Origin: Desulfobacterales bacterium
GTDB taxonomy: Bacteria; Desulfobacterota; Desulfobacteria; Desulfobacterales; SURF-7
Length of the DNA stretch: 64,000 nt
Assembly (NCBI GenBank): GCA_018693105.1
Contig: JABHLN010000004.1
Location: 2,327 to 66,326 of the forward strand
Direction: 5' to 3'
Part shown: positions 4,772 through 58,794 of the stretch, piece by piece
Position numbering within the stretch: the stretch's first letter is position 1
Layout of the letters: every line of letters begins with the position of its first letter
Made by a program: the position numbers and the translations under genes
Notes under the pieces: model-generated
What the model was told of the DNA's origin: nothing
The model's input: the letters and a program-made list of their open reading frames with translations, nothing else
Database searches by the model: none

Positions 4772-4923
4772 TATGACTGGTAAGAAGTATAATCGATGGC
4801 TAAGTAACAATCTTTATATACAAGGCTCAGTGTTTGGCCAGACGTGAAGGCATACATGTAGTATGTCGAACGTTTGGCCAAACACTATAACGTAGTATAT
4901 GGAGACTTTTTACGACCCCATCA
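4772..4923 (-). mobile_element. Family A long-hairpin MITE-like element, full length, reverse orientation
   Basis: The reverse complement reads TGATGGGGTCGTAAAAAGTCTCCATATACTACGTTATAGTGTTTGGCCAAACGTTCGACATACTACATGTATGCC... Its terminal TGA (4921-4923) is the thiolase stop codon. Confidence 0.9.
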
Positions 4924-6162
4924 GGCTTTTAGTATTGTCACTGCAAGCGCAGCTTCCGTGTTGCTCACAGTTCCACCTGCATTTTCAGCAATTCCAATCT
5001 TTGCACCTTCTACCTGTCTTTCACCTGCAGCACCTGTAAGATGCATGTAAAGTTCAACTACCTGGCGCGCTCCTGTTGCTCCTATGGGATGTCCCTGGCA
5101 TTCAAGTCCTCCGGAAACGTTAACAGGTATTTTACCACCAAGTGTTGTATGACCTGCTTCGGTAAATGGTCCGCCTTCTCCTACCGGGCAGAGAAGAAGG
5201 TCTTCAATGGCAACGATTTCACCCAAAGCGGTTGCATCATGAACTTCGGCCAGATCAACATCTTCCGGGCCTATTCCGGCTCTTTCATATGCTTTTTTTG
5301 CAAGTTTGGTCATGGTGGGCTCTTCACCTTCTTTTCTCTCCTGACCACTTGCGACGCAACATGCTGATAACTCAACAGACTTGGATACTCCATTTTTTTT
5401 AGCAAAATCTTCAGAACAGATTATAACAGCAGCTGCACCGTCACCTATAGGAGAGCACATGAGGCGTGTCATAGGTCCTGAAACCACAGGAGATGCAAGC
5501 ACCTCATCAATAGTATAGCTATCCTGATATTGAGCTTTGGGGTTCATTGTTGAGTGGTAATGGTTTTTTGAAGCAACGGCGGCGAATTGTCTCTGTGTTG
5601 TTCCGTACTTTTCCATGTGCATCATTGCAGCAGATGCATATACATCCATGAATATTGTAGGCGTACCGGACTTCTGGGTGCTTGTAGCTTCCGATGTTTG
5701 GGTTTTTTCATGTTCCGCTTTCTGCTTTGCAAAGTTTTCAAGGAATAATTTTACCTCTTCTACATCCATGCAGCCTGTAAAAACGGGAAGTACTTTGCTT
5801 CGATCAGCAAAATACATTTTTTCCATACCGACAACCAGGGCAACATCCATTTCGCCAAGGGCAACCTGAGCCCAGGCTCCGTTTAATGCAAAAGCAGATG
5901 ATGAACATGCATTTTCAACATTTATTATAGGAATTCCGCCGATTCCCATGTTTCTCAAGACAGCCTGTCCGCGTATTGCATACTGTCCTTCAAGACAACC
6001 CTGGCCGACATTTCCCACCCATGCACCATTGAGATGTTCCTTAGTTATATCCGCATCATTTAATGCATCCGTTACAGCTTCTTTTACAAGGGATTTCAGG
6101 TTACGATCCATGTGCCGACCGAATTTTGTCATACCGCAACCGATTATTTTAACCTTACGCAT
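4921..6162 (-). CDS. thiolase-family protein (SCP-x / non-specific lipid-transfer-type acetyl-CoA C-acyltransferase)
   Basis: 413 aa. N-terminus is MRKVKIIGCGMTKFGRH, the active-site region is NACSSSAFAL, and the C-terminal region contains GGLECQGHPIGATG. AGGAGA RBS. Confidence 0.85.
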   Translation of the reverse strand: MRKVKIIGCGMTKFGRHMDRNLKSLVKEAVTDALNDADITKEHLNGAWVGNVGQGCLEGQYAIRGQAVLRNMGIGGIPIINVENACSSSAFALNGAWAQVALGEMDVALVVGMEKMYFADRSKVLPVFTGCMDVEEVKLFLENFAKQKAEHEKTQTSEATSTQKSGTPTIFMDVYASAAMMHMEKYGTTQRQFAAVASKNHYHSTMNPKAQYQDSYTIDEVLASPVVSGPMTRLMCSPIGDGAAAVIICSEDFAKKNGVSKSVELSACCVASGQERKEGEEPTMTKLAKKAYERAGIGPEDVDLAEVHDATALGEIVAIEDLLLCPVGEGGPFTEAGHTTLGGKIPVNVSGGLECQGHPIGATGARQVVELYMHLTGAAGERQVEGAKIGIAENAGGTVSNTEAALAVTILKA

Positions 6163-6192
6163 TATTTAATTTCTCCTTTGAGATGTTATTTT

Positions 6193-6335
6193 TGATGGCT
6201 TCGTAAAAAATATCCATCAACTGCGTTATAGTGTTTGGCCAGACGTTCGGCATACTATTTGTATGCCTTCACGCCCGGCCAAACATTATGCTTTACATAT
6301 TTAAGATGTTTACTTATAAAACATTTTTTATCTTA
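6193..6335 (+). mobile_element. Family A element, full-length left and core, degenerate right terminus
   Basis: TGATGGCTTCGTAAAAAATATCCATCAACTGCGTTATAGTGTTTGGCCAGACGTTCGGCATACTATTTGTATGCCTTCACGCCCGGCCAAACATTATGC... Similarity decays after TACTTA. It lies between two co-directional genes. Confidence 0.85.
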
Positions 6336-6343
6336 AATTTAAA

Positions 6344-8662
6344 CTATTCTTCAATTTCAGGTCCACTTCCACCTTCACGGAACCATGTTACAGGTCTGAA
6401 CTCACGGGGAACCATACCTTCCTGTTTGAATTTAGGATATCCAAGAACCATTGCATTACTGATTTTCCAGGGTTCACTTAAACCTAGTTTTTCTTTGATT
6501 TCCGGTGAGTTTTCCAATACCGCAATAAATCCCACCCAGCAGGATCCAAGACCGAGTGATTTTGCAACAAGTGTCATGTTTTGTCCACATATACCTATTT
6601 GTAAATCAGGCCCGGCTATTGACCTTGTATCAGCAGCCATTAAAATAATAGCCGGTGCATTCATTAATACCGGAAGATCACCGTTAGCTATACAGCCTAC
6701 ACCGCCTACTGCCACTCTCGGGTCCCAGTTTCCAACACTAGGATCAGCTTCATAGACAGGTATTAGTGCTTTTACAAGTGTATCGTTCGAATACGCAGCG
6801 TTTAACATGCCGACTTGAGCTACGGTTGCTTCCTGAAGTTCGTTAATAATCGATTTGTCTGTTATAGCGATAAATTTCCAAGGCTGGCAGTTCCCGGAAC
6901 TTGGTGCGAATCGCCCGGCTTCCATTACTCTTCTGATAAGAGGCTCGGGTACCGGATCATCTTTGTAGTTTCTTATACTTCTTCGTTCAAGAACAGTCTT
7001 TTCAATAATATTCCATTCTGCAGGATTCCCTTCTGCGTCTTTAGGTTCAAGAGGCATTTTAGCAGGGAGAGGATGGGGAGATGTTGCAAATGGTCCATCT
7101 GTAGCATGATAGGATGATACAATGGAAATCGCGTCAGTAGGACATGCTACCATGCAGTTATAGCAACTGAAGCATGCATAACCTTCTTTTAAAACAGGTG
7201 TTTTGTCTTCACTCTCTTCCCAGCATTTGAATGGGCAGTTCAGTATGCAAAGACCGCATTGGGTACATTTTTCGGCATCGCATTTCATAACTCCCATTTT
7301 TATACTATCACCAGGCCTGAAAACAGGTTCTACATCTTCCCATGTCATACCGCCCTCTACAGTAGCTGCAGGGGCAGCAGCCTGAACATTTTCAGCCTTT
7401 ATGTTCAGTATTCCACTGCCTTTTACCAGGTGTGTAGACCCTTCAATCATAAGTGATTCGTTTACACCATCTTCAATAAGACCTAATCTTGCATCGCGGA
7501 ATACCTGTTCGATGTGAAATTCTTTTGAAAGTCCGGGGCTGCCGAATATCTGAACAGCCTGACTTGCTACCCTGAATGCAACCTCTGTACAAAAAGTTTT
7601 TGCTGCAATACCATAATGTGTAGCTATCGGTCTTCCCTGCTTGATTTGCATACTATTATAAACAAGAACCCGACGGCCCAGGGAACGGGCAGCTTCTACT
7701 GAGGCAAACATGTCATAAAGTTTCAATTTGATGTTCTGATGTTCTATAATCGGTTTTCCACCCTGTACCCTGTTTTTTGCATAATCAAGGGCTTCTTCAA
7801 AAGCCGCCTGTGCTAAACCGGTAAAAAATATACCCACGCCGCCGTTAGCTGATCCAAGTTGTGTGTTTGAAAGTTGCCTAAACATTACTGGATCATCGGC
7901 TATCATCATGTATTTTGGAATACGAACATTGTCAAAATAGATTTCACCCTGATTCAATGATCTTTGTCCCATTTTAACAAGCGGTTTCCCTCTTGTAACA
8001 CCGGGAAGATCAAGAGGCATTACCACTATTCCTCCGCCTTGATTTCCCTTGGAAGGATCTAGTGAAACCCATATTACACCATGTGTTGCTATGGTTCCGT
8101 TGCTGACCCATGCGGCTTTCTGACCGTTAATAATATATGAATCTCCATCTGCAACTGCTGTAACTCCATATGCACATTTGGGATTTGTGGCGACTTCGCC
8201 TTCGAAAAATAATGAATCACCGCCATGGTCAGGCTCTGTTATACCCCAGCATCCGATCATTTTACCTTCTTTGTCGGCACAGAATTGTTTAACCAATTCC
8301 TGCATTTCCGGGGCAGGAGACATCATTGCATATAAATAGGGCTGGGAACTGGCAAGTATAGATGTTGAAAGACCAACATCGGCCCAGCCAAACTGTTCAA
8401 GGAGGATTGCCATTGTTAAAGGATCATCAATACCAAGACCTCCGAAATCTTCAGGGATGTTCATGATGGTATAATCCATTGCAATGGATTTTTTAAATGC
8501 ATCCCACAAAGGAGAATTATCAGCAATTACATCCTCCGGAGTGGCAAATTTGTCAAGCTCAACGCCAATAGGCCGTATTACTTCCGAGACAAATTTTCTG
8601 GTTTCTTTCCAGAAAGAAAAGTGTTCCTTGGTAAAATCAATGTTAAGTTCTCTTAATCCCAT
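6344..8662 (-). CDS. fusion protein: acyl-CoA dehydrogenase domain + 2x[4Fe-4S] ferredoxin domain + nitroreductase (FMN) domain
   Basis: 772 aa. Residues ~1-415 are ACAD-like (GCWGITEPDHGGD, IFGSPGLSKEFHIEQVFRDARL). The middle carries CTQCGLCILNCP and CFSCYNCMVACP. The C-terminus is nitroreductase-like (RRSIRNYKDDPVP, PSSGNCQPWKF). GGAGGG RBS. Confidence 0.85.
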   Translation of the reverse strand: MGLRELNIDFTKEHFSFWKETRKFVSEVIRPIGVELDKFATPEDVIADNSPLWDAFKKSIAMDYTIMNIPEDFGGLGIDDPLTMAILLEQFGWADVGLSTSILASSQPYLYAMMSPAPEMQELVKQFCADKEGKMIGCWGITEPDHGGDSLFFEGEVATNPKCAYGVTAVADGDSYIINGQKAAWVSNGTIATHGVIWVSLDPSKGNQGGGIVVMPLDLPGVTRGKPLVKMGQRSLNQGEIYFDNVRIPKYMMIADDPVMFRQLSNTQLGSANGGVGIFFTGLAQAAFEEALDYAKNRVQGGKPIIEHQNIKLKLYDMFASVEAARSLGRRVLVYNSMQIKQGRPIATHYGIAAKTFCTEVAFRVASQAVQIFGSPGLSKEFHIEQVFRDARLGLIEDGVNESLMIEGSTHLVKGSGILNIKAENVQAAAPAATVEGGMTWEDVEPVFRPGDSIKMGVMKCDAEKCTQCGLCILNCPFKCWEESEDKTPVLKEGYACFSCYNCMVACPTDAISIVSSYHATDGPFATSPHPLPAKMPLEPKDAEGNPAEWNIIEKTVLERRSIRNYKDDPVPEPLIRRVMEAGRFAPSSGNCQPWKFIAITDKSIINELQEATVAQVGMLNAAYSNDTLVKALIPVYEADPSVGNWDPRVAVGGVGCIANGDLPVLMNAPAIILMAADTRSIAGPDLQIGICGQNMTLVAKSLGLGSCWVGFIAVLENSPEIKEKLGLSEPWKISNAMVLGYPKFKQEGMVPREFRPVTWFREGGSGPEIEE

Positions 8663-8977
8663 TGTTACCCTCCTTGGAAATTTTTTTAGAAATCATAATG
8701 ATTAAAGTTATTAAACGGTAGTTTATGTGTGTTATATTAAATTTTGATGAATTATTATTTAATATTAAAGTTCACAATTTTATAAATTGGATCATTTTCT
8801 ATTAAGCCTATTTTAAATATTTATAATAAAAATAAATACCTTAAGCAGCTAACCGACTAACTGGATTGTTGACAGGTCAGCTGGTCGGTCATCAAGATTG
8901 ATAAGAAATCTTTATAAGAAAGTCAAGTCATTATTTTTATAAAAAACGGCTGATTATTATTATTGAATTGAGATTCG

Positions 8978-9123
8978 ATAGTGTTCATCCAGAAATGAGG
9001 ATTTTTGTTCAAGATCAAGACATGCGAAAAAAATAACCACAGGCTTATGTTTGATATTCCGAGGATTATTTTTTGAGCATAACGAAGATATTGGGAAGAA
9101 GACCATTTCAGGATGTGCACTAT
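8978..9123 (-). mobile_element. Family D/F element, copy F1
   Basis: Termini ATAGTGTTCATCCAGAAATG... and ...CATTTCAGGATGTGCACTAT are inverted. About 91% identical by hand count (10 mismatches over 117 bp) to the reverse complement of 10141-10256. Confidence 0.8.
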
Positions 9124-9273
9124 ATTAAGATGTTCTGATTTCACCTAATTTATATAAGAAAATATGAATAGTTGATTCAGAATTTGAGATGATTGTTTTT
9201 TACATGTTTCTATGCTAATTAGATAATAATAATATATCTTTTACAATAGAACGTATAAATATCAGAGCCTTTT

Positions 9274-9450
9274 ATGTTTTTAAGTATTAAGGAATCATAT
9301 AGAAAAGCAGTTTTTTATTTTATCAAGCGACCTTATTTTATATTTCTGATATTAATCGGGTTTATGCTTGAGTTTATTATCAATTTCCCTTTTATGTTAT
9401 TATTAGCTCTTGAAAAAGGAACTATAAGAGAAGAATCAGATTTAAAATAA
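9274..9450 (+). CDS. possible 58-aa small membrane protein
   Basis: Hand-found ORF below the track cutoff: MFLSIKESYRKAVFYFIKRPYFIFLILIGFMLEFIINFPFMLLLALEKGTIREESDLK. It has a hydrophobic core, no clear RBS and no recognisable family. Confidence 0.25.
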   Translation: MFLSIKESYRKAVFYFIKRPYFIFLILIGFMLEFIINFPFMLLLALEKGTIREESDLK

Positions 9451-9472
9451 CAGAGAATTAAGGAGTATTTGA

Positions 9473-10027
9473 ATGAAGTTTTTTTATCAGCTATTATTAA
9501 TACTTGCTATATCTATTTCAGGTACTGCATGGAGTGAACAGAATTTTGATGAAGCAGAAAAACTTTGGAAAAACAATAAACATGTTGAATCTATGGAGTT
9601 TTATCAGAAAGCGCTTGATTCAGGGAAACTTTCAAAAAAACAAATTGTAAGATCTCATTATAATAGAGGATTTGCAATTTTTAAGCTTATGTCCGAGGTT
9701 GATGGAGCTATTAAGGAGCTTGATGAGGTTCTTAAACTTGAGCCGGATAATGCTGATGCATACTGCCTTAGGGCAGATGCTTTGAGCATTGTTCAAAAAT
9801 ATAAAGAAGCTGTCCCGGACTGGAAGATGTCTCTTGAAATAAATCCTGATGATCCCATTACATACATTAACCGCAGCTATTATTTTGAAGAAAACGGAAA
9901 TATCGACAGGGCATTAGAAGATCTTGAAAATTATATTGAGCTTTTTGATGAATATACCCCTGTTGACATGAGAAGGCTTGAGATTCTAAAAGATATGCAG
10001 TCAAAGGGCATGAAAAAAAGATATTAG
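9473..10027 (+). CDS. secreted TPR-repeat protein
   Basis: Signal peptide MKFFYQLLLILAISISGTAWS and several TPR-like repeats (e.g. AYCLRADALSIVQKYKEAVPDWKMSLEINPDD). AAGGAG RBS. Confidence 0.75.
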   Translation: MKFFYQLLLILAISISGTAWSEQNFDEAEKLWKNNKHVESMEFYQKALDSGKLSKKQIVRSHYNRGFAIFKLMSEVDGAIKELDEVLKLEPDNADAYCLRADALSIVQKYKEAVPDWKMSLEINPDDPITYINRSYYFEENGNIDRALEDLENYIELFDEYTPVDMRRLEILKDMQSKGMKKRY

Positions 10028-10106
10028 CATTAACGGTTTTCATAAATATTTTCTTTCTTGAATATGATGAAAATATATTTTTATATGCTAATAGCAGGTG
10101 TTTAAT

Positions 10107-10256
10107 TAGTCACTATCCGGTCCCGCCAAAGCGGGATTTCCAATATCTTCGTTATACTCAAAAAAGAATCCTCGGAGTATCAAACATATACCCGCGGTTA
10201 TTTTTTTAGCATGCCTTGATCTTGAACAAAAATCCTCATTTCTGGATGGACACTAT
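10107..10256 (+). mobile_element. Family D/F element, copy F2
   Basis: The core CCAATATCTTCGTTATACTCAAAAAAGAATCCTCGGAGTATCAAACATAT aligns with D1 (CCAATTTCTTCGTCATGCTCAAATTTTAATCCTCGAAATACTCAATGTAT). The right terminus is ...CATTTCTGGATGGACACTAT. Confidence 0.8.
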
Positions 10257-10404
10257 GTTAGTAATTAAGAAAACATTCTATTTTGGCTTTCAGGTATAAT
10301 TGAATTATTCTTTACAAAGCCAAAACATATAAATATTGGTTCCACAACCTCCTTCCAGATTTTGATTTTGCCAAATTTAATTATAAAATTAGAGGCTTTT
10401 AACC

Positions 10405-11226: not shown

Positions 11227-11399
11227 TAATTATGGGAAAAAGGGGCTCATTTTCAATTCTCATATTAAAGTTACCGTAAATATTCAAAAGGACAGGAAGT
11301 CATGAAACATGCAGTACAAGCAAATGAGCAGTAGGGCGTTTTTTCAGGGAAGCCACTCCATGGATAATTATCGATTAACCCTCAACTCCGGTTTAAGAT

Positions 11400-11558: not shown

Positions 11559-13028
11559 ATGTTGAGATTAAAGAATGTTGATTTTAATAAAGATAAGGTG
11601 AAAACTTTTGTTATCCCGGTTTGTGAAGACAAAGATATACATGACAACAGATTAGTTTCTTCTATTAAAAAAGAAATATCCGGAATAAAAGAGTTTAAAG
11701 GCAGAAAGGGCGATGAAGTTACACTATATAATATATCTGGAAAAAAAATTGAGAAAGTGATTTTTATAGGTATCGGGAAGGTTGAAACTATCGATGCGGA
11801 ATCTCTTCGTGCATTTGCAGGTAGTGTAGTAAAAAAGTGTATTCAAAAAGGTTTTGGAGAAGTAATGATTTCTGTACCTTCTGCAGGTAAAATAAAGATT
11901 GAACTACAATTAATGCTCAAATCTTTAATGGAGGGAGGATATCTGGGAAATCATATCTTTGATAAATATAAGAAAGACAAAAAAAACAAACCATTAAAAA
12001 GAATTGATTTTTTTGTAAAAGCCGATATTGCAAAAAAATTCAACAGACTTTCATCCCATGTGAAAAAAATCTGTGACAGTACAATCATTGCCCGTGAATG
12101 GGTAAACACCCCGTCAAATGACAAAAAACCGGTGGATTTCACAAAATCAATTGCCGCATTAGGGAAAAAGGCAGGGCTAAATATTACCGTTTTAGATGAG
12201 AAACAGCTGAAAATGAAAAAGTTTGGTTCTCTGCTTGCAGTTGCAGCCGGAAGTATAAATAAACCTCGAATGGTTATAATGGAATACAGTCCAAAAAAAC
12301 CCAGGAAGACAGTTGTTCTTGTAGGTAAAGGAGTAACGTTTGACTCAGGAGGTATAAACTTAAAAACATCCGAAGGTCTTAATAATATGAAAATGGATAT
12401 GGCTGGTGCTGCTGCGGTTGCCTCAACCCTTATAGCCGTTTCAAATATAAAACCTGACATAAAAGTTGTTGGAGTATTGCCTATTGTGGAAAATATGCCT
12501 TCAGGTTCTGCAATCCGACCCGGTGATGTTATTAAAAGTTTTGAAGGTAAAACTATTGAAATAGGAAATACAGATGCTGAAGGAAGGTTGATTCTTATCG
12601 ATGCAATGGCATATGCAATTAAGAAGTATAAACCAAATGTTCTTATTGATGTAGCAACTTTAACCGGAGCGTGCGTTGTTGCTCTGGGTGAAAAGATTGC
12701 CGGTGTATTCTCTTTTGATAATAAAATAGCTGATTCAATTGTTAAATCCGGTGAACGAACTTTCGAGAGATGCTGGCAAATGCCTATGCCGAAAGACTAT
12801 AAAGAATTTCTTAAAAGTGAAATTGCCGATATCAAGAATATCGGGAATTCACGATATGGTGGTGCCATTACAGCAGCCATGTTTTTGTCGGAGTTCACAG
12901 GTGATACAAAATGGGCACATATAGATATTGCAGGACCTGCATTTATTAACAAGGGGACTGCATATTGCGGGGCAGGAGGTTCCGGATTCGGGGTCCGCCT
13001 TTTATGTGATTATTTAGAAAATATATGA
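11559..13028 (+). CDS. pepA: leucyl aminopeptidase (M17)
   Basis: M17 signatures VGKGVTFDSGG and NTDAEGRL. I chose the ATG at 11559 (8 nt after AAGGAG) over 11553 (2 nt after). Confidence 0.9.
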   Translation: MLRLKNVDFNKDKVKTFVIPVCEDKDIHDNRLVSSIKKEISGIKEFKGRKGDEVTLYNISGKKIEKVIFIGIGKVETIDAESLRAFAGSVVKKCIQKGFGEVMISVPSAGKIKIELQLMLKSLMEGGYLGNHIFDKYKKDKKNKPLKRIDFFVKADIAKKFNRLSSHVKKICDSTIIAREWVNTPSNDKKPVDFTKSIAALGKKAGLNITVLDEKQLKMKKFGSLLAVAAGSINKPRMVIMEYSPKKPRKTVVLVGKGVTFDSGGINLKTSEGLNNMKMDMAGAAAVASTLIAVSNIKPDIKVVGVLPIVENMPSGSAIRPGDVIKSFEGKTIEIGNTDAEGRLILIDAMAYAIKKYKPNVLIDVATLTGACVVALGEKIAGVFSFDNKIADSIVKSGERTFERCWQMPMPKDYKEFLKSEIADIKNIGNSRYGGAITAAMFLSEFTGDTKWAHIDIAGPAFINKGTAYCGAGGSGFGVRLLCDYLENI

Positions 13029-13056
13029 AGATTTTTTACTTTATACGAGTTCATCA
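13022..13056 (+). repeat. Family A right-end fragment with internal deletion
   Basis: TATATGAAGATTTTTTACTTTATACGAGTTCATCA. The pepA stop TGA (13026-13028) lies inside the conserved TATATGAAG block. Confidence 0.7.
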
Positions 13057-15213: not shown

Positions 15214-16662
15214 ATGAGTTTAAATATATATAATACATTGAGCGGGAATAAAGAACCATTTGAACCCTTTGAACCTGGAAAGGTAAAAATGTATGTCTGC
15301 GGCCCTACAGTTTATGATTCCTGCCATATCGGCCATGCAAGATCAGTGGTGGTTTTTGATGTTATAGTTCGTTACTTACGTGCAATTGGCTATGATACTA
15401 CTTACATCAGAAATTTCACTGATGTAGATGATAAAATAATTAACCGGGCAAATGATTTAGGTATTACATTAAAAGAGCTGTCCGAGAAATATATTGATGA
15501 ATTCAATGAAGACATGGATGCTCTGAATGTCAGGAGACCTGATTTCGCACCAAAGGCTACAGAGCATATTGATCAGATAATTGATGTAATCAAAAGACTT
15601 ATTGAAAAAGGCCACGCATACCAGGTTAATGGTGATGTTTATTATTCTGTAAATTCTTTTGAAGGGTATGGAAAACTTTCAGGGCGAAAACTGGAAGATA
15701 TGGAAGCAGGTGCAAGAGTTGATATTGATGAGAAAAAAAATAATCCGTTTGATTTTGCCCTCTGGAAATCTGCTAAACCTGATGAACCTTCATGGGATAG
15801 CCCTTGGGGTGAGGGTAGGCCCGGATGGCATATTGAATGTTCTGCCATGGGTCGTGAATTTCTTGGAGAAACGTTTGATATTCACGGTGGTGGTAAGGAT
15901 CTGATTTTCCCGCACCATGAAAATGAGATAGCCCAGTCTGAAGCGGCATTTGGGAAACAATTTGTCAGATATTGGGTGCATAACGGTTTTGTTAATATTA
16001 ATCAGGAAAAAATGTCAAAATCACTTGGAAACTTCAAGATGATAAAAGATGTGATAATGAAATATCATCCTGAAGCTGTGCGTCTTTTCCTTTTATCAAA
16101 TCATTACAGAAGTCCGATAGATTTTAATGATAAATCAATGGACGAATCAAGTGCAGGACTTGACAAGATATATACTCTGCTTCTCCGTGTTGAGAAAAGT
16201 ATCGGTTCCGCCAAAGATATTGAACCTGCAAATATTTATGAAAAATTCTGTGAAGCAATGGATGATGATTTTAATACAGCCCGCGGTATAGGTATAATTT
16301 TTGATTCTGTCAGAAGTATAAACCGTATGCTTGATAAAAATACTGCAGGGGCTTTGGATGACAATTTGTCTGTTGAAGAAAAAAAAGAAATCGGATCCGC
16401 CCATGCCGATATTCTCAGGATAGGCAATGTCCTTGGAATTATTACTGAATCACCGGAAGCTTATTTCAATAAAAAGAAAGAAACAGCTCTTGAGGATAAA
16501 TCGGTTGATGCTGAAATGATTGAGGAAATGATAAAAAAACGTTTCGAAGCCAGGAAAGCCAAAGATTTTGAAACTGCCGATAGCATAAGAGACAAACTTG
16601 ATTCCTTGAATATAACACTTGAGGATAGTCCTGAAGGAACTATTTGGAAAGTAAAAGAATAA
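15214..16662 (+). CDS. cysS: cysteine--tRNA ligase
   Basis: Class I motifs CHIGHARS and KMSKSLGN, plus GWHIECSAM. Confidence 0.93.
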   Translation: MSLNIYNTLSGNKEPFEPFEPGKVKMYVCGPTVYDSCHIGHARSVVVFDVIVRYLRAIGYDTTYIRNFTDVDDKIINRANDLGITLKELSEKYIDEFNEDMDALNVRRPDFAPKATEHIDQIIDVIKRLIEKGHAYQVNGDVYYSVNSFEGYGKLSGRKLEDMEAGARVDIDEKKNNPFDFALWKSAKPDEPSWDSPWGEGRPGWHIECSAMGREFLGETFDIHGGGKDLIFPHHENEIAQSEAAFGKQFVRYWVHNGFVNINQEKMSKSLGNFKMIKDVIMKYHPEAVRLFLLSNHYRSPIDFNDKSMDESSAGLDKIYTLLLRVEKSIGSAKDIEPANIYEKFCEAMDDDFNTARGIGIIFDSVRSINRMLDKNTAGALDDNLSVEEKKEIGSAHADILRIGNVLGIITESPEAYFNKKKETALEDKSVDAEMIEEMIKKRFEARKAKDFETADSIRDKLDSLNITLEDSPEGTIWKVKE

Positions 16663-16666: not shown

Positions 16667-16810
16667 TGATGGTGTCGTAAAAAGTCTCCATCTACTGCGT
16701 TATAGCGATTGGTCAGACACTCGACATACTGCATGTATGCCTTCACCCCTGATCAACCGTTATGCCTTGTATATGAAGATTTCTACTTAGTCATCGGTAC
16801 GAGTTCATCA
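16667..16810 (+). mobile_element. Family A element, full length
   Basis: TGATGGTGTCGTAAAAAGTCTCCATCTACTGCGTTATAGCG...GGTACGAGTTCATCA. Flanked by direct ACCT (16663-16666 and 16811-16814). Starts 4 nt after the cysS stop. Confidence 0.9.
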
Positions 16811-16857
16811 ACCTTAATACTTCTTTTTTTTATTTTATAGAGTTTTACTGTTATTAC

Positions 16858-20703: not shown

Positions 20704-20725
20704 TTTCCCGTTTATTGATTAACAA

Positions 20726-20879
20726 TGATGGCGTCGTAAAAAGTCTCCATCTACTGCGTCGTAGCGGTTGATCAGAAGTTCGACATACTGCATGTATGCC
20801 TTCACTCCTGATCAACCGCTATGCCTTGTATATGAAGATTTCTACTTAGCCATCGTTAGTACTTTTTACGAGTTCATCA
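20726..20879 (+). mobile_element. Family A element, full length
   Basis: TGATGGCGTCGTAAAAAGTCTCCATCTACTGCGTCGTAGCGGTTGATCAG...CTGATCAACCGCTATGCC...ACTTTTTACGAGTTCATCA. Flanked by direct ACAA (20722-20725 and 20880-20883). Confidence 0.92.
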
Positions 20880-21079
20880 ACAATAATAGTTAACTGATTT
20901 GACAAAATGGCTAAAATATTGATTATAGTATAATAACTTGTGTTTTATAACGGTTTTGCAGTGCTTGTTTAGAGAAATGTATACTTTTTTGAGCATTACT
21001 GAGTATGTTTATGAAAAAGTCATGGCGAATAGTACTGATTGATAATAATAAAGAATTGTTATATATAAAACTTCAAATA

Positions 21080-42302: not shown

Positions 42303-42653
42303 ATGAGTATTCTTAAGAACATCGTAAAAAAAGGTAAAAATGCAACGCTATCAATAGGTCTCGAGAGTGTTTTTAAAAATATAGTAAAAGAATATGCTGA
42401 TTTATTGTATTTCAAATTTGATTCCAGTAAAAGTTTTCTTGAGTTTGACCTCATGTTAAAAGATGAACTTTCATCACTTAAAGTAAGAATAGAAAATTTT
42501 AATATTTTAAAAAAGAATAATCATCACTATATTATTATTCCAGAACTGACTACTTCAAGGGAATGGATTAATACTATAGCCAAAGAGTATATTGTTGATA
42601 AGGAAATATTATTACCTGATGAATATGCAACATTTTATGAAATGATAACGTGA
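42303..42653 (+). CDS. hypothetical protein
   Basis: 116 aa ORF, 34 nt downstream of the SprT-like gene, with no recognisable family. Its stop TGA is the first three bases of the next family A element. Confidence 0.45.
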   Translation: MSILKNIVKKGKNATLSIGLESVFKNIVKEYADLLYFKFDSSKSFLEFDLMLKDELSSLKVRIENFNILKKNNHHYIIIPELTTSREWINTIAKEYIVDKEILLPDEYATFYEMIT

Positions 42654-42806
42654 TGGCGTCGTAAAAAGTCTCCATCTATTGCGTTATAGTTGTTTATCAG
42701 AAGTTCGACATACTACATGTATACCTTCACTCCTGATAAACAATTATGCCTTGTATATGAAGATTTTTGCTTAGCCATCGGTTATAATTTTTTACAAGCT
42801 CATAAT
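42651..42806 (+). mobile_element. Family A element, full length (right terminus slightly degenerate)
   Basis: TGATGGCGTCGTAAAAAGTCTCCATCTATTGCGTTATAGTTGTTTATCAG...CTGATAAACAATTATGCC...TTTTTTACAAGCTCATAA. Confidence 0.9.
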
Positions 42807-49107: not shown

Positions 49108-49242
49108 TGATGAACTTGTAAAAAATCAACTTGGGATGGCAAAGCAAAAAGTTCAAGATCAAGGCGCCGCAAATCCCGAGGAATGAAGCGTACTAATTGT
49201 ACGCTGTAGTGACGAGGGGTGTAGCGCAACGTAGATATTGAC
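49108..49242 (-). mobile_element. Family B element (left terminus replaced by the adjoining family A copy)
   Basis: TGATGAACTTGTAAAAAATCAACTTGGGATGGCAAAGCAAAAAGTTCAAG...AGCGTACTAATTGTACGCT...GTAGCGCAACGTAGATATTGAC. The reverse complement aligns with 51092-51221. Confidence 0.8.
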
Positions 49243-49384
49243 TCGTAAAAAAAACCGATGGATAAGTAGAAATCTTCATATACAAGGCATAGAGTTTGGT
49301 TCGGTGTGAAGGCATACGTGTAGTATGTCGAATACCTGGCCAAACTCTATAACGCATTAATGGAGACATTCTACGACGCCATCA
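49238..49384 (-). mobile_element. Family A element, full length, reverse orientation, abutting family B
   Basis: ...ACTCGTAAAAAAAACCGATGGATAAGTAGAAATCTTCATATACAAGGCATAGAGTTTGG...CCAAACTCTATAACGCATTAATGGAGACATTCTACGACGCCATCA. The terminal TCA (49382-49384) is the stop codon of the SPOR gene. Confidence 0.88.
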
Positions 49385-50958: not shown

Positions 50959-51028
50959 ATATGTAGTATGTCGAGTGTCCGGCCAAACGCTCTAACACAG
51001 TATATGGAGACTTTTTACGACGCCATCA
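50959..51028 (-). repeat. Family A left half (apex to left terminus)
   Basis: ATATGTAGTATGTCGAGTGTCCGGCCAAACGCTCTAACACAGTATATGGAGACTTTTTACGACGCCATCA. Bracketed by a 28-bp direct repeat (50931-50958 and 51030-51057). Confidence 0.8.
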
Positions 51029-51091
51029 ATTAATTAAGTTTATGTATCGATATCATATAGTCATATTCATCTTCAATTCTTTTATTAAATT

Positions 51092-51221
51092 TGATGGCTT
51101 CGTAAAAAGTCTAATATCTGCGTTGCGCTACATGCCTCGTCACTGCGGCGTACGATAAGTACTCCTCATTCCTTGAACTTTTTATTTTGCCATCCAAAGT
51201 TCACTTTTTACGGGTTCATCA
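51092..51221 (+). mobile_element. Family B element, full length
   Basis: TGATGGCTTCGTAAAAAGTCTAATATCTGCGTTGCGCTACATGCCTCGTCACTGCGGCGTACGATAAGTAC...TTGCCATCCAAAGTTCACTTTTTACGGGTTCATCA. Flanked by direct AATT (51088-51091 and 51222-51225). Confidence 0.88.
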
Positions 51222-51225
51222 AATT

Positions 51226-51250
51226 TGATGGTGTCGTAAATCCCGCTTAA
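51226..51250 (+). repeat. Solo left terminus joined to an ATCCCGCT unit
   Basis: TGATGGTGTCGTAAATCCCGCTTAAGC. The unit AATCCCGCTATAGG recurs at 52408 and 54702. Confidence 0.6.
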
Positions 51251-51957: not shown

Positions 51958-52190
51958 TGCAGTCTGTTGATATTTCAATTACAATTATGAATTTCTGCTA
52001 TGCTTTTTTTGGAGCAGTATTGACGATACTTTTTATGATTGTCGGATATAAAATATTTGACAAAATGACTCCGTTCAATACTTCAGAACAGCTTGAGAAT
52101 AAAAATATCGCTGTAGGTATTGTGGTTGGATCGATTTTTATCGGGCTGGGGATTGCCATAGGGATGGTTATTGGTATGGGCCTTAATTAA
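51954..52190 (+). CDS. DUF350-like small membrane protein
   Basis: 78 aa with two TM segments and NIAVGIVVGSIFIGLGIAIG. 4-nt overlap with the SLT gene. Confidence 0.6.
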   Translation: MMQSVDISITIMNFCYAFFGAVLTILFMIVGYKIFDKMTPFNTSEQLENKNIAVGIVVGSIFIGLGIAIGMVIGMGLN

Positions 52191-52336
52191 GATGGCGTCG
52201 TTAAAAGTCTCCATCTACTGCGTTATAGCGTTTTGCCAGACGTTCGACATACTACTTGTATGCCTTCACGCCTGGCAAAAAACCATGCCTTGTATATGAA
52301 GATTTTAACTTAGCCATCAGGTATGATTACGTAGTT
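52191..52336 (+). mobile_element. Family A element, full length (first base of terminus missing)
   Basis: GATGGCGTCGTTAAAAGTCTCCATCTACTGCGTTATAGCGTTTTGCCAG...CTGGCAAAAAACCATGCC...CCATCAGGTATGATTACGTAGTT. It starts directly after the TAA of the DUF350 gene. Confidence 0.88.
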
Positions 52337-52364
52337 AAAATTCTCTATCTAACCCTCTGAATAG

Positions 52365-52426
52365 TATATGAAAATTTAATTTAACCATCGGTTATGATTA
52401 TGTCGTTAATCCCGCTATAGGTGGAC
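52365..52426 (+). repeat. Duplicated family A right arm plus AATCCCGCTATAGG unit
   Basis: TATATGAAAATTTAATTTAACCATCGGTTATGATTATGTCGTT repeats 52293-52336, and is followed by AATCCCGCTATAGGTGGAC. Confidence 0.7.
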
Positions 52427-52466
52427 TATTACGTTAAAGGGTCTAATAAAGGAATAGAAAAGAGTA

Positions 52467-52865: not shown

Positions 52866-52903
52866 TCATTAAGGTTCTTTCTTAACTATTTGTTATATTT
52901 TTT

Positions 52904-52928
52904 GGTTATATTTTTTACGAGTTTTTCA
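52904..52928 (+). repeat. Family A right-terminus fragment
   Basis: GGTTATATTTTTTACGAGTTTTTCA. The terminal TCA (52926-52928) is the stop codon of the minus-strand aminopeptidase gene. Confidence 0.65.
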
Positions 52929-54125: not shown

Positions 54126-54153
54126 AAATACTTCCTCCGTTCTGCTTGAAAGT

Positions 54154-54399
54154 TTATTTTGATCCTTTTAAAAAAAGTTTATGATATTCCGGCTCTGTCA
54201 TGTGATTTTTCATTAGACGGTTTATCATATTGAATATCTCTTCCAGCTCTTCGTCCGTTAGTTTTGTAATCAGATGTTCCATCAGTTTATCATCGGAAAA
54301 TTTCTGCAGGTAGTATATTACAGTGTTCTCATCGGTTTTTCGATCCAGCCCGAATCCAACAAGATCAGTATAATTTTCTACAAAATCATGTGTATGCAT
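54154..54399 (-). CDS. hypothetical protein
   Basis: 81 aa acidic helical ORF, co-directional with and 28 nt upstream of the aminopeptidase gene. No recognised family. Confidence 0.45.
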   Translation of the reverse strand: MHTHDFVENYTDLVGFGLDRKTDENTVIYYLQKFSDDKLMEHLITKLTDEELEEIFNMINRLMKNHMTEPEYHKLFLKGSK

Positions 54400-54465
54400 T
54401 GTCGTTGCCTTATTATATTCGTTTATGTATGTTTACCAAGATGTTAGTATCTGCAAATAAATAAT

Positions 54466-54608
54466 AGAAGCTATCTCAAATAAAAGATCAGGGTTCATGG
54501 CAAGGCAACAAAGGGGCGAGAAAGCAGAGCATACTATTAGTATGTGAGCATTTTGAGCCGCTTTGTAACGCTGCCAGGGGCACTTAGATTTATTTTGAGT
54601 TAACTTCT
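54466..54608. repeat. Family C long imperfect palindrome
   Basis: AGAAGCTATCTCAAATAAAAGATC...GCATACTATTAGTATGTG...TTAGATTTATTTTGAGTTAACTTCT. 143 bp, apex CATACT-ATT-AGTATG. Single copy in the window. Confidence 0.7.
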
Positions 54609-54665
54609 AAGAGAATAAAGGAAAAGCCGGGTTACGTCAACCGGCACATTTGAAAATCACATTGT

Positions 54666-54720
54666 TGATGAACTCGTAAAAAGTATAACCGATGGCTAAG
54701 TAATCCCGCTATAGGAGTAC
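54666..54720 (-). repeat. Family A right-terminus module (inverted) plus AATCCCGCTATAGG unit
   Basis: TGATGAACTCGTAAAAAGTATAACCGATGGCTAAGTAATCCCGCTATAGGAGTAC. Confidence 0.75.
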
Positions 54721-54783
54721 TACCGGGTTATATTAACCCAAAAAACCATGATTAACTCTTTACGTGTTAATTATAATGAATGG

Positions 54784-54813
54784 TGATGAACTCGTATAAA
54801 GTATAACTGATGG
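54784..54813 (-). repeat. Second, directly repeated right-terminus module
   Basis: TGATGAACTCGTATAAAGTATAACTGATGG repeats 54666-54695. The ATG of the 54810 ORF lies in its GATGG block. Confidence 0.75.
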
Positions 54814-55907
54814 AGAATAATATTTTGCATAGATTGCTTACATCAATAATTTTATGTCTGTTTCTCTGGAATAGCAGCCTTGCCGATACAGCCGGGAATC
54901 AAGACATTGATTCTTATAATAAATCTCATAATAATAAATCTCATAATAATAAATCAGAAAAGATCGAATACCATTTAAACAAGCTTAAAGAGGAAATGCC
55001 CCGACTTGACCTTTCAAAAAAGCCGGTCAATTCGGAATCTGCAATAAAGTATTTTGAGTATTACGGTTTGAATTTTAAAAATACACTTCATTATTTCGGG
55101 TCGTTTAATTCAAAACAAAAGATTATCGCAGGTCATGTTTTCCTGCCTGATAACCCGGCAGGGACTGTGTTATTATTACATGGCTATTTAGACCATTCGG
55201 GTATTTTAAAAAACCTGATAAGTAATTGTCTGGAGTCCGGTTATGCTGTTGCAGTTTTTGATCTTCCCGGGCACGGGCTTTCTTCGGGAGAAATGGCGTC
55301 GGTTGATGATTTCAGCGAATATATTTCAGCTCTTGATGACTTTTTAAAAAAATACTATTCAGTTCTTCCGGAGCCTTTGAATCTTATCGGTCACAGTACC
55401 GGATGTTCTGTTGCATTTGATTATTTAAGTAAATTTAAGGACAAGGAAATTTCAAAGGTGATTTTTCTGTCTCCTCTTGTTCATACTGCTTATTGGGAAA
55501 CTTTTAAAACCGGTTATTATTTCTTTGGTATTTTCTTTAAAAAATTTAAAAGGTATTTCAGGAATAACTCAAGAGATACAGAATATATTGAGTTTATAAA
55601 AAATGATCCGCTCCAGGCCAGGGAGATTCCGGTGAAATGGCTGAAAGCTTTATATTTATGGAATAAAAGAGTGGAAAAGTATGATGTTTTATCAAAAAGG
55701 GTTCTGATAATTCAGGGTGATGATGATGCCACGGTTGACTGGAAATATAATATTGAATTTTTCAGAAAAAAAGTTAAACCGTTGGAAGTAAAAATGATAA
55801 AAAATGCCCGTCATCAATTAATCAATGAAATAGTCCCGGAGCGATCTATTGTTTTTGATATTATAAATGATGAACTTGAAAAGAGTTTAAACGAAGGAAT
55901 AAAATGA
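54810..55907 (+). CDS. alpha/beta hydrolase (lysophospholipase / monoacylglycerol-lipase-like), secreted or lipid-anchored
   Basis: Signal-like N-terminus, HGYLDHSG oxyanion region, GHSTG nucleophile elbow and a late DD..V/H. Contains an (NKSHN) tandem repeat. Confidence 0.75.
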   Translation: MENNILHRLLTSIILCLFLWNSSLADTAGNQDIDSYNKSHNNKSHNNKSEKIEYHLNKLKEEMPRLDLSKKPVNSESAIKYFEYYGLNFKNTLHYFGSFNSKQKIIAGHVFLPDNPAGTVLLLHGYLDHSGILKNLISNCLESGYAVAVFDLPGHGLSSGEMASVDDFSEYISALDDFLKKYYSVLPEPLNLIGHSTGCSVAFDYLSKFKDKEISKVIFLSPLVHTAYWETFKTGYYFFGIFFKKFKRYFRNNSRDTEYIEFIKNDPLQAREIPVKWLKALYLWNKRVEKYDVLSKRVLIIQGDDDATVDWKYNIEFFRKKVKPLEVKMIKNARHQLINEIVPERSIVFDIINDELEKSLNEGIK

Positions 55908-57574
55908 AACTAAGAACATGTGTTGATCCATCAGGTAGTTTTATATATGGAATTCATAAACCTTCTTTTCGTGTGCAAAATCTACGTGAGTTTGAAAACA
56001 TTTCTTCTCTGGGAGAATTTACAGACGGGTCTATTTATGAGAATCATGCAAATTTTCCTGAAGGTAATATTGAAGGAATACAAGCGGATATTATATATGA
56101 AATTCCAAATGCATTCCCTTTCAGGGGGACGACATATATTACTAAAAGCTGGGCAGACGAAAAGGCAGAAAATCCAGGGCTTATCTTCCTACCGAAAAGG
56201 TCTTCATTATCGTTCACAGATATAGTCAAAAACTGGATAGGTGAAGACGAAATTACTGATAAGAAACTTGACAGCATTTTCAAAACCCTTCCGGACTCAT
56301 TACTTTTAACTATTGCCGTTAATTCAAATAATGCTGACGACTTGACCCGTATCGCAGAGGATTGCTGCGAGTTTATCCATGATCCGGAAAGTAAAACGCC
56401 GAAAGGGCTTCGTTATAAGAAGGATGAAAAGGGGCGTATACGGGCTGTAATAAATAATTTTCCAGTGTTTGAAGCCCTGGCAAACAATCCCCATATGCCC
56501 GATGAGTACAAGGATTCAATGGTTCTAAGACCCGGTGCTCAAGGGGTAAGTGAGATAGTAGGTGAGTGGCTTGCAGGGGATAAGGATAGTCATGTTTTCG
56601 AGTATCTAAGACGCAACAGTTATATACCCTGGGGACATTATGCCGCAAACATGGCTAATGATTCGATCCGGTACAGTGTTCGAGATCTGACTTTAGCAGA
56701 TATGACAGGAATGCGTCATCTATATTATCAGAGAACATTTGTAAGACTTTCAGAACAATTGGGGCTTAAGTACTCTCCACGGAAACGAATCCATTCACCT
56801 GATGAACTTGAGGAAATGCGGAAAAGAATTAATGAAGCTGTTATTTCAATGGATAAAGAATCCTCCTTGAACTATAACAGCACATTATGGGGGTGGAATT
56901 TCGGTTTTGATTTTGCTCCTACTCATTACAGGCTGCATGCATCTCATCAGCAGATTCATCAGCAGTTTGCGCTTATTCCCCAAAAAGTTGCATCGTCACC
57001 AGAGCCGGATAAAATAGACTCAGATGAAAATAAAGATCAGGTTAATAATTTTCAGACATATGCATGCGGTGATCTGGTTGCCGATTTTTCAGGAGAATTC
57101 AGGAAGAAGACAGGAAAGAGCTTTTTTGATTCGTATATAAAGGCTATTTTAGCAAACAAAAGGATTGATGGCAGAGAAGGGGAGAGCAGTCTGATTGTTT
57201 ACAAAGATGACAATGTAATTATTTTTGTTCCCAAGGCCCAGACGTCCCAGTGGGAACTTCAGCTTATGACGTTAAAGCCTGTAGGAAATATTATCGAATC
57301 TGATACGGCTACCAGGGCAAGTATTGATTGCGCTATGCTTGTAACCATGAAAATATATGAATCAATGGGTGCAAGGATGGTTTCCACATCAGAGTACTCT
57401 AAACGGTTTGATTCTAAAAATACCGACCAGAGACTTCTTTATTCTTTTTTGCCAAAAATGCCGGAATCTCCCGGTGCATTCAGTGAATCACAATTAAGAT
57501 GGATAAATGGGCATTATCCGGAAGATTTTGCATCTGCATGCCTTGCTCATATGCCGGAGGATGAAGCACTTTGA
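55904..57574 (+). CDS. hypothetical protein (556 aa)
   Basis: 4-nt overlap (ATGA) with the hydrolase gene, so probably co-translated. Only weak resemblance to GalT/HIT-type nucleotidyltransferases (THYRLHASHQQIHQQ; VIIFVPKAQTSQWELQLMTLKP). Confidence 0.5.
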   Translation: MKLRTCVDPSGSFIYGIHKPSFRVQNLREFENISSLGEFTDGSIYENHANFPEGNIEGIQADIIYEIPNAFPFRGTTYITKSWADEKAENPGLIFLPKRSSLSFTDIVKNWIGEDEITDKKLDSIFKTLPDSLLLTIAVNSNNADDLTRIAEDCCEFIHDPESKTPKGLRYKKDEKGRIRAVINNFPVFEALANNPHMPDEYKDSMVLRPGAQGVSEIVGEWLAGDKDSHVFEYLRRNSYIPWGHYAANMANDSIRYSVRDLTLADMTGMRHLYYQRTFVRLSEQLGLKYSPRKRIHSPDELEEMRKRINEAVISMDKESSLNYNSTLWGWNFGFDFAPTHYRLHASHQQIHQQFALIPQKVASSPEPDKIDSDENKDQVNNFQTYACGDLVADFSGEFRKKTGKSFFDSYIKAILANKRIDGREGESSLIVYKDDNVIIFVPKAQTSQWELQLMTLKPVGNIIESDTATRASIDCAMLVTMKIYESMGARMVSTSEYSKRFDSKNTDQRLLYSFLPKMPESPGAFSESQLRWINGHYPEDFASACLAHMPEDEAL

Positions 57575-57618
57575 CTTTTGTCGTCTATGTGAAAGTTAAA
57601 AAGTGAAAGTTAAAAAAT

Positions 57619-58794
57619 ATGGTTTCAAAAGAAAATCATGAAAAAACTGCCGGGATATATGTTCATATCCCGTTTTGCTTGAGGAAATGCCCTTATTGTG
57701 ACTTTTACTCAATTACCGATATTTCCCTTGAACAGTTATTCTTTGATTCCGTTTACCGTGAGATCGTAATGAGAAGTAATACCTCCTTTTTATTTGATAC
57801 GATTTATATCGGAGGCGGTACCCCTTCTGTTGTCGCACCTGAAAATATTGGAAGGCTTATTGAAAAGCTTCACCATTATTATAAGATATCCCCGGAAGCG
57901 CAAATAACAATAGAAGTAAATCCGGGATTAGTTGATTTTAAACTCTTATCTAAATATCTATCGTATGGCATAAACCGTTTGAGCATTGGAATACAGTCGT
58001 TCGGTGATGAAAATCTGACTTTTCTCGGAAGGATTCATTCTGCATCGGAAGGAATAAAGTCTATAACCGACGCTAAAGAAGCCGGCTTTAATAATATCTC
58101 CCTTGACCTGATTTACGGTATCCCTGGACAGACGATGGAGGACTGGCTTTTGGATTTGTCACAGGCTGTTGCTTTTAAGCCCGAACATATATCCTGTTAT
58201 ATGCTTACTTATGAAAAAGATACACCTATGGAAAAAAGAATGCGGGAAGGTGAATTTCAGCCGTTGCCGGAAGAATTGGCAGGTAATTATTTTTCTGCAG
58301 CAAACGATTTTCTTAATTCAAACGGTTATAGCCAGTATGAAATATCAAATTTTGCGAGAACCGGTTCTGATGATTTAAGATCTCTTAAATCGAGACATAA
58401 CTTTAAATACTGGTCATTTTCCCCATATATCGGGTTTGGTCCTTCAGCCCATTCTTTTTCCGGGGATGAGAGAAGCTGGAATCATGGAAATGTTTTGAAA
58501 TATGCTGAAGATATAAAAAGCGATATACTCCCTGTTGCTGATACTGAAGTTTTAAACAGGGAACAGAAGATTCTCGAAGCGGTTTATCTTGGTCTAAGGA
58601 AAACCGAAGGCATAGACCTCAAGGAATTTAAGAACAAATTTGGTGTCAGTTTCAGGGAGATGTTTATTAATATACTCCCGGAGCTTATTGAAAATAAACA
58701 TTTAGAGGTTAGCAAGAATCGTTGCGCTCTGACTAGTAAAGGAATGCTTTTTCATGATAGTATAGTTTCGATGCTTGTGGATGAGGACATTTGA
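57619..58794 (+). CDS. hemW: radical SAM heme chaperone HemW (HemN-like)
   Basis: YVHIPFCLRKCPYCDF (CxxxCxxC), GGGTPS, RHNFKYW. The stop TGA is the first three bases of the next family A element. Confidence 0.85.
   Translation: MVSKENHEKTAGIYVHIPFCLRKCPYCDFYSITDISLEQLFFDSVYREIVMRSNTSFLFDTIYIGGGTPSVVAPENIGRLIEKLHHYYKISPEAQITIEVNPGLVDFKLLSKYLSYGINRLSIGIQSFGDENLTFLGRIHSASEGIKSITDAKEAGFNNISLDLIYGIPGQTMEDWLLDLSQAVAFKPEHISCYMLTYEKDTPMEKRMREGEFQPLPEELAGNYFSAANDFLNSNGYSQYEISNFARTGSDDLRSLKSRHNFKYWSFSPYIGFGPSAHSFSGDERSWNHGNVLKYAEDIKSDILPVADTEVLNREQKILEAVYLGLRKTEGIDLKEFKNKFGVSFREMFINILPELIENKHLEVSKNRCALTSKGMLFHDSIVSMLVDEDI

Follow-up and report, generated by a model that had tools for sequence, protein, structure and literature searches.

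REP sequences of Escherichia coli are said, in work by Liang, Rudd and Deutscher from 2015, to lie within about 15 nt of stop codons, where their hairpin lowers translation. Here, we describe a repeat of ~152 nt from a 64,000-nt stretch of DNA of Desulfobacterales bacterium (GenBank assembly GCA_018693105.1, contig JABHLN010000004.1, positions 2,327 to 66,326 of the forward strand), referred to below as the window. The repeat is a non-coding, non-autonomous transposon, or transposable element of the miniature inverted-repeat type (MITE), with terminal inverted repeats (TIRs) and a target-site duplication (TSD) of 6 or 7 bp, and its left junction repeatedly coincides with the stop codon of the adjoining gene. 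In common with REP, it places a stable hairpin near enough to a stop to meet the terminating ribosome, and the distance threshold is similar (≤9 nt here). REP sequences differ in being mobilized by RAYT tyrosine transposases, and it is the flush arrangement that is favored here. An assignment to REP/BIME, which are GC-rich palindromes of 20–40 nt with no TSD, was rejected given the length, AT-rich ends and TSDs of the present element. The MIRU repeats of Mycobacterium, reportedly described by Supply et al. in 1997 as intergenic operon repeats, are said to carry small open reading frames (ORFs) that overlap the flanking stop and start codons, to which the TGATG and mini-ORF (ATG GCG TCG TAA) of the present element may be compared; MIRU are, however, tandem direct repeats and not transposons with TIRs and TSDs.

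Several palindromic repeats share more of this anatomy. ERIC/IRU and YPAL of the enterobacteria and Yersinia are palindromes of ~130–170 nt with TIRs and TSDs that occupy intergenic positions, are co-transcribed with neighboring genes and affect the upstream transcript in an orientation-dependent manner (PMC2229807, PMC3049150). Size, palindrome, TIRs, TSDs and intergenic siting are thus shared, but the sequences show no evident relation, the hosts belong to another phylum, the ERIC/YPAL TSD is TA, and the same literature contains no report of junctions that rebuild stop codons or of a 10:1 orientation bias limited to flush copies. Correia/NEMIS of Neisseria is an abundant MITE with TIRs, with stops in all frames and with long-hairpin transcripts that affect neighboring mRNAs; it differs in its TA duplication, its IHF site and its promoter elements, and an orientation-specific association with stops is not reported for it (PMC2229807). 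SPRITE, BOX and RUP of Streptococcus pneumoniae are small, clustered and mutually inserting interspersed repeats that are enriched downstream of coding sequences, SPRITE being found near 3' ends. Unlike the present element, SPRITE resembles a Rho-independent terminator and has no demonstrable TSD, and an overlap with stop codons is not described (PMC3049150). Within the Desulfuromonadales, the Chunjie MITE of Geobacter uraniireducens leaves the operon in which it resides intact and overlaps with genes for proteins, according to the part of PMC3184786 that summarizes Chen et al. 2008. The dimensions given there for Chunjie (178–235 bp, 21-bp TIRs and 9-bp direct repeats), as well as its ends, differ from those of the present element (~152 bp, 6–7-bp TSDs), and identity with it was rejected. 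Junction stop codons are not described in the MITE reviews or the pneumococcal repeat literature that were consulted, and the element is not among the multicopy sequences in the Pelobacter carbinolicus supplements.

Other classes of mobile or recombinogenic sequence were considered and dropped. Elements derived from IS200/IS605 (TTGAT-like target, no TIR or TSD, fixed 4–5-nt target) are ruled out by the clean TSDs, the TIRs and the palindromic target. Integron attC sites (RYYYAAC...GTTRRRY, arrayed by an integrase, no TSD) do not match ends of the form GATGG...CCATC on single copies that lie between housekeeping genes and carry TSDs. Site-specific recombinase and Tn916-like readings were discarded, each copy having its own duplicated 6–7-mer. 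By analogy, the element may work like the co-transcribed palindromic MITEs (ERIC, YPAL and Correia) and it resembles those REPs that lie beside stops.

The Element and Its Target Site

Copies are 145–161 nt long, with GATGGCGTCGTAAAAAG at the left end and CTTTTTACGAGTTCATC at the right end; the TIR pair consists of GATGGCGTCGTAAAAAG and of GATGAACTCGTAAAAAG, the reverse complement of the right end. The window, with a G+C content of 37%, contains 32 TIR-type ends against 1.4 expected, and it holds nine full copies and many fragments. The hallmarks of a MITE are found, namely a size below ~500 bp without a transposase gene, TIRs, a TSD of fixed length and many dispersed copies (238 sites); missing is an autonomous insertion sequence with the same ends, no pair of ends 600–4000 bp apart with a convincing TSD being present in the sequence collected here.

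The wider sample was gathered by searching with a core pattern that ignores the flanks, which gave 54 loci in species-representative genomes (mostly Desulfuromonadales, Desulfuromusa and other Deltaproteobacteria metagenome-assembled genomes, MAGs) and 112 metagenome loci, many from samples that also hold the window genes. Once loci with duplicate flanks had been removed, the sample amounted to 238 unique insertion sites in 1.05 Mb from the window, related MAGs and metagenomes; MAG and metagenome contigs often break at repeats. Detection by TIR only is symmetric and takes in fragments and a second element type described below.

Perfect direct repeats flank 65 copies, being 6 bp long in 48 and 7 bp in 17. 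The target reconstructed at sites away from gene ends is a symmetric palindrome, TY/AANNTT/RA. The outermost T and A of the TGATG...CATCA that appears to bound each copy fall within the duplication, and a deviating outermost T or A matches the other flank in five of seven informative cases (for example, TTGAAA at locus L017, GATGTT at L014 and TTCTTT at L058). The junction TGA is most likely chimeric, with its T being the last TSD base, contributed by the target, and its GA the first two bases of the element. The initial annotation, made from the window alone, had assigned the whole TGA to the element terminus; the GA belongs there, and the T most likely does not. The reconstructed empty site is identical whichever way this boundary is drawn. 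The last duplicated base is nearly always T, and left junctions read T + GA = TGA, right junctions giving TGA on the other strand. The target motif itself contains a stop triplet, and given that the preferred target already contains T/RA, a TAA or TGA stop is a good target.

Insertion into Stop Codons

At 31 of 186 left termini, an ORF of 90 or more amino acids has the junction TGA as its stop, compared with 3 of 159 right termini (Fisher p = 2e-6). With TIR-only detection, the counts are 36 of 262 left and 5 of 259 right termini (p = 3e-7). The 31 left junction stops belong to 30 unrelated proteins, among them recognizable PheS, ornithine carbamoyltransferase and MetY-like C-termini, and ORFs that terminate at the left end or within it are distributed over the three frames as 31:7:6, where 1:1:1 would be expected.

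The frequency expected from target preference was estimated with a symmetrized weight matrix derived from sites away from genes and applied to all intergenic and stop positions of the sequence collected here. In this model, stops weigh ~3 times as much as the average intergenic position, and target preference together with tolerance leads to an expectation that ~2% of insertions split a stop, or ~1% per orientation. The right-end value of 1.9% fits, whereas the left-end value of 16.7% is ~16 times higher; given that the model counts every intergenic base as tolerated, this excess is an upper estimate, but the left-right contrast is independent of the model. Both the enrichment at stops and its orientation, put forward in the initial annotation from a few window genes, therefore hold over the 238 sites.

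Reconstruction of the empty sites of junction-stop copies revealed an in-frame stop at the same position in seven of seven copies with a perfect TSD and in 9 of 11 with no more than one mismatch (five TGA, three TAA and one TAG), which supports insertion into or next to stop codons, one of three explanations offered in the initial annotation. The other two sites had a sense codon at the junction (TAC at L100 and TTG at L104) and represent truncations. At L017, insertion took place in the T/GATGG junction of an older element that already provided the stop.

Orientation Bias and Gene Context

The preference for the left end is restricted to the immediate vicinity of the stop. A stop lies within −9 to 0 nt of the terminus at 50 left and 9 right ends, and within −60 to −10 nt at 25 left and 20 right ends, an interval that shows no bias. 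Between tandem genes, 47 copies are forward and 20 reverse (p = 0.0013), and the whole of this forward excess consists of the 23 copies whose left terminus is 0–9 nt from the upstream stop; there is no right terminus in that position. Between convergent genes, the corresponding counts are 9 left and 5 right (tandem versus convergent, nominal p = 0.0046). Flush forward copies occupy short original spacers, with a median of 88 nt compared with 142–320 nt, and no asymmetry of flank composition that might act as an orienting cue was observed at sites far from genes. There is, in summary, a strong orientation bias that places the left end next to the gene and is confined to ≤9 nt from the stop, and target choice alone is insufficient to account for it.

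Copies in the Window and Their Effect on Proteins

The copies and fragments identified in the window are as follows.

4770..4923, minus strand: full-length copy; the thiolase gene (4921-6162, minus strand) stops at the left junction TGA (4921-4923).
6193..6346, plus strand: full-length copy with a degenerate right end; its left terminus is 31 nt upstream of the thiolase start, and its right end lies near the TAG stop (6344-6346) of a gene for a 772-amino acid acyl-CoA dehydrogenase/nitroreductase.
13018..13056, plus strand: right-end fragment; the pepA stop TGA (13026-13028) is inside its TATATGAAG block.
16667..16826, plus strand: full-length copy, separated by 4 nt from the cysS stop upstream of it (16660-16662); the TSD AACCTT begins at the last A of that TAA.
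20726..20879, plus strand: reference copy, 22 nt past the uvrC stop, with a perfect 6-bp TSD, AACAAT (20721-20726 and 20879-20884).
42651..42805, plus strand: full-length copy; a 116-amino acid ORF stops at the junction TGA (42651-42653), and a gene for an AMP-binding enzyme begins 38 nt past the right end.
49232..49384, minus strand: full-length copy; the TPR/SPOR gene stops at the junction TGA (49382-49384).
50961..51028, minus strand: left-half fragment (model positions 1-68).
51092..51221, plus strand: second element type of 130 nt with the same TIRs, an unrelated core and the TSD AAATTT.
52190..52340, plus strand: copy truncated at its right end; the usual junction-T base is taken by the final A of the DUF350 stop TAA (52188-52190), giving AGATGG.
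52911..52928, minus strand: degenerate right-end fragment TGAAAAACTCGTAAAAAATATAACC; the M29 aminopeptidase gene stops at the junction TGA (52926-52928).
58792..58944, plus strand: full-length copy; hemW stops at the junction TGA (58792-58794).
58996..59032, minus strand: left-end fragment, 4 nt (TGTG) past the selB stop TGA (59037-59039, minus strand).
60962..61115, plus strand: full-length copy with the TSD ATGTTT/ATATTT; the left junction is 17 nt upstream of the selB start (60944).

The five junction stops named in the initial annotation (those of the thiolase gene, the 116-amino acid ORF, the TPR/SPOR gene, hemW and the M29 aminopeptidase gene) are all present in the sequence, as are its three near cases (DUF350, cysS and pepA). 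Seven of the nine full copies have a left terminus that faces the 3' end of a co-directional gene, again as first noticed, and the other two (6193 and 60962) face gene starts. For the DUF350 copy, the final target base was the A of TAA, hence the reading AGATGG. The selB gene, absent from the first list, is the eighth gene end in the window that adjoins a left terminus.

Given that both junctions of any copy regenerate the preferred target, nested copies and arrays arise, as seen at 51092-51243 and 61115-61137. In the former, the second element type is inserted exactly at the T/GATGG junction of a further fragment (51226).

The left termini of copies 60962 and 6193 lie 17 and 31 nt upstream of the selB and thiolase start codons, respectively (60944-60962 and 6162-6193), the former just upstream of the GGGAG ribosome-binding site of selB. 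Promoters of these two genes would therefore be in or beyond the element, which would form part of their 5' leaders.

A comparison with relatives indicated little change in the encoded proteins. The C-terminal residue of the thiolase (C-terminus VTILKA) coincides in position with that of 120 of 120 relatives and that of the TPR/SPOR protein (C-terminus VVKR) with that of 20 of 20; for the latter, an empty site built from the degenerate right end predicted a protein 11 residues longer, which the orthologue comparison ruled out. The Pfam profiles M29, HemN_C and SelB are complete at the C-terminus. The flanks of the hemW copy point to a possible loss of two codons, and hemW relatives (the nearest being 57% identical) have variable tails of similar length. 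The orthologue comparison proposed in the initial annotation thus returned unchanged ends for thiolase and TPR/SPOR and variable tails for hemW. In a minority of genes over the wider sample, the reading frame continues into the element and stops after 11 nt, at six left ends and three right ends, and the protein acquires a new tail, MAS or MNS before the stop, all six left-end cases having MAS; at L052, for example, LRSV at the C-terminus has become LMAS. Insertion into a pre-existing stop codon that leaves the protein intact is therefore the rule and C-terminal remodeling, the second explanation offered in the initial annotation, the exception.

Folding and Coding Potential

One copy has a predicted folding energy of −58 kcal/mol (z = −8), corresponding to a long hairpin. 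Consensus folding of 43 copies places the left terminal repeat in a stem with an internal repeat (ending in CTTAGCCATC) and not with the right terminal repeat; ~25 nt of the right end remain unpaired, and 17 base pairs show compensatory changes across three subfamilies. On the mRNA, the predicted hairpin would therefore begin 1 nt past the stop in a flush forward copy and ~26 nt past it in a reverse copy; this offset appears to be the only internal asymmetry found in the element. On the forward strand only, the main hairpin is followed by a U-rich stretch, GGUUAUACUUUUUAC; its U5 tract lies 8–9 nt past the main stem and pairs with the left repeat in alternative folds.

The reverse strand, the complement of the forward orientation, is predicted to be more stable by ~14 kcal/mol in 38 of 38 copies, with consensus folds of −31 (reverse) versus −11 kcal/mol (forward) over 43 aligned copies, and the advantage persists with DNA parameters. 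This difference arises because there are ~7 versus 2 G·U columns, inherited by descent, and as evidence for a reverse-strand RNA it was accordingly given little weight. The better folding may mean that the reverse strand occurs in single-stranded form, or it may be inherited chance.

A scan of the window against Rfam 15 returned just two tRNAs at the gathering score and no match to the element, and a permissive Rfam scan of one copy gave chance-level miRNA matches only. A simple terminator scan detected no canonical terminator inside elements. In a promoter scan, no site could be attributed to the element consensus, and a hand search for −35/−10 pairs at both ends gave weak matches only.

In copies of the window subfamily, forward stops occur in all frames within 50 nt of the left end, and the sole ORF is the three-codon MAS followed by a stop (ATG GCG TCG TAA). 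A Desulfuromonadales subfamily (GTCGCAAAAAG; loci L007, L019, L023, L025 and others) has a 43-codon ORF beginning MASQKVRPTALQRFF in 15 of 24 copies, and its start ATG overlaps the junction TGA (TGATG). This ORF is probably incidental to a recent expansion.

Distribution and Neighboring Repeats

The carriers of the repeat are marine sulfate- and metal-reducing bacteria. Exact copies of the window thiolase and HemW proteins are also encoded in the GenBank MAG GCA_018648885.1 (NCBI label Desulfobacterales bacterium). A clear copy outside the Desulfobacterota was found at positions 1449-1582 of a 1.76-Mb contig of a Pedobacter sp. MAG of the Bacteroidota (L051; profile E = 2.6e-22), which suggests either horizontal spread or a chimeric assembly. 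A pattern match in a MAG of the Spirochaetota (L043) was not confirmed by the profile.

Two further repeats were noted in the window. An unrelated 120-nt inverted repeat, 91% complementary (8978-9097 and 10137-10256), flanks the gene for a 184-amino acid TPR protein (9473-10027). A 55-nt repeat, 82% complementary, occurs at 58941-58995, directly past the right end of the hemW copy, and at 2374-2428, which indicates that further repeat families cluster on the right side of elements.

Discussion

The findings can be combined in a minimal model. A transposase would cut the target with a stagger of 6 bp, sometimes 7 bp. Insertion between the first and second bases of a stop codon rebuilds the stop in the same frame and position, which leaves the protein as it was and turns the entire element into 3' untranslated sequence. 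Orientation would then be set by selection and not by the chemistry of insertion. Given that the mRNA channel of a terminating ribosome covers roughly 9–12 nt past the stop, the hairpin base of a flush forward copy, 1 nt past the stop, would be in reach of that ribosome. Translation of the upstream gene may keep the hairpin base open in flush forward copies only, so that expression of the next gene is not blocked in compact, co-transcribed pairs, other placements in such pairs being removed by selection. We consider this combination, seamless insertion into stop codons with orientation set by selection linked to the hairpin and the terminating ribosome, reasonably probable, and selection linked to the hairpin is our best guess as to the cause of the orientation bias.

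A number of observations weigh against this model. The staggered, DDE-type cut is read from the TSDs, and a parent element with a transposase gene was not found when ends paired 250–5000 and 600–4000 bp apart were sought in the sequence collected here; the search returned neighboring MITEs only, none with a convincing TSD. No terminator or promoter was detected in the element, and the step involving the ribosome and polarity is a proposal. The presence of a stop in 9 of the 11 sites reconstructed does not significantly exceed the baseline of the target motif (32 of 60; p = 0.10), and if very few intergenic bases are in fact tolerated, the left-end excess shrinks and a deficit of right ends appears instead. 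Genes were taken as ORFs of at least 90 amino acids and not from a gene finder, and the distance and context classes (≤9 nt; tandem versus convergent) were picked after the data had been seen, which makes the p values nominal. The left terminus is also nearer to gene starts (17 of 45 versus 12 of 72 within 30 nt, with start calls by longest ORF being unreliable), a tendency that the ribosome and polarity idea leaves unexplained. Finally, the bias is already present in the youngest copies, those with a perfect TSD, of which seven have the left end on the stop and none the right.

This last observation would be expected if orientation were fixed at insertion, by an asymmetric complex that senses a strand-specific cue where genes end, for example transcription, translation coupled to it or a protein bound there. 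Such a complex would also fit the proximity of the left terminus to genes in general (nearer than the right at 78 versus 33 sites, gene starts included) and a left-end rate far above an expectation that the right end simply equals. We nevertheless regard it as decidedly unlikely: the target logo and the flank composition are symmetric away from genes, the bias is absent 10–60 nt from stops, and we know of no DDE-type insertion sequence that orients by a neighboring stop codon. That forward copies are instead kept as a domesticated 3'-end module, acting as a terminator or protecting the 3' end of the mRNA in the way suggested for REP, ERIC and SPRITE, was the third explanation of the initial annotation, and it too seems unlikely. 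The enrichment of the left terminus at gene 3' ends, the very stable hairpin with its compensatory changes and the forward-strand U-rich stretch all speak for a role of this kind. The gene context does the opposite of what it predicts, the bias being weakest at convergent ends, where a terminator would matter most, and strongest in tandem pairs. The lack of bias 10–60 nt from the stop argues against it as well, as do the spacing of the U tract from the stem and its pairing with the left repeat, the negative terminator scan and the weaker fold of the forward-strand RNA.

If copies landed in the last codons of genes and survived where they supplied an in-frame TGA, truncation with a new stop would remodel C-termini. 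The two sense codons at L100 and L104, the nine MAS or MNS tails and the two codons that hemW may have lost are of this type, yet the stop was already in place at most reconstructed sites, the thiolase and TPR/SPOR proteins end exactly as do all compared relatives, and the frames are used unevenly; as a general account, truncation is thus highly improbable. The simplest possibility, that an AT-rich T/RA target and a harmless rebuilt stop suffice and that orientation is noise or a detection artefact, derives some credit from the ~3-fold weight that the motif confers on stop positions and from the right-end rate that fits the model. It is hardly credible in view of the left-right contrast, which is found by profile and by symmetric TIR detection alike, and of a pattern that recurs in the window and in the genome and metagenome loci, across 30 unrelated genes.

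For a MITE in a compact genome, the stop codon thus serves as a harmless landing pad, given that half of the target site joined to the element's first two bases yields a stop again. One practical consequence is that repeat maskers and gene callers will conflict, given that housekeeping genes such as those of thiolase, hemW and pheS have stops that are half repeat; another is that insertion polymorphisms could serve in strain typing of uncultured marine Desulfobacterota. The one-sided, distance-limited bias amounts to a natural experiment on how a strong hairpin meets a terminating ribosome and affects operon expression, a question studied so far mainly for REP of E. coli. It is conceivable, if doubtful, that the flush arrangement is a functional, translation-gated structure or, as a variant, that the transposition machinery reads gene ends strand-specifically. 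In a translation-gated structure, the stop codon would form the first base pairs of a ~50-bp hairpin, the terminating ribosome would decide whether that hairpin forms, and translation of the gene upstream would thereby be linked either to the expression of the gene that follows or to what becomes of the 3' end. If this were so, a selfish repeat would have distributed a ready-made cassette, a stop codon joined to a hairpin that the ribosome senses, among dozens of unrelated genes of several Desulfobacterota lineages.

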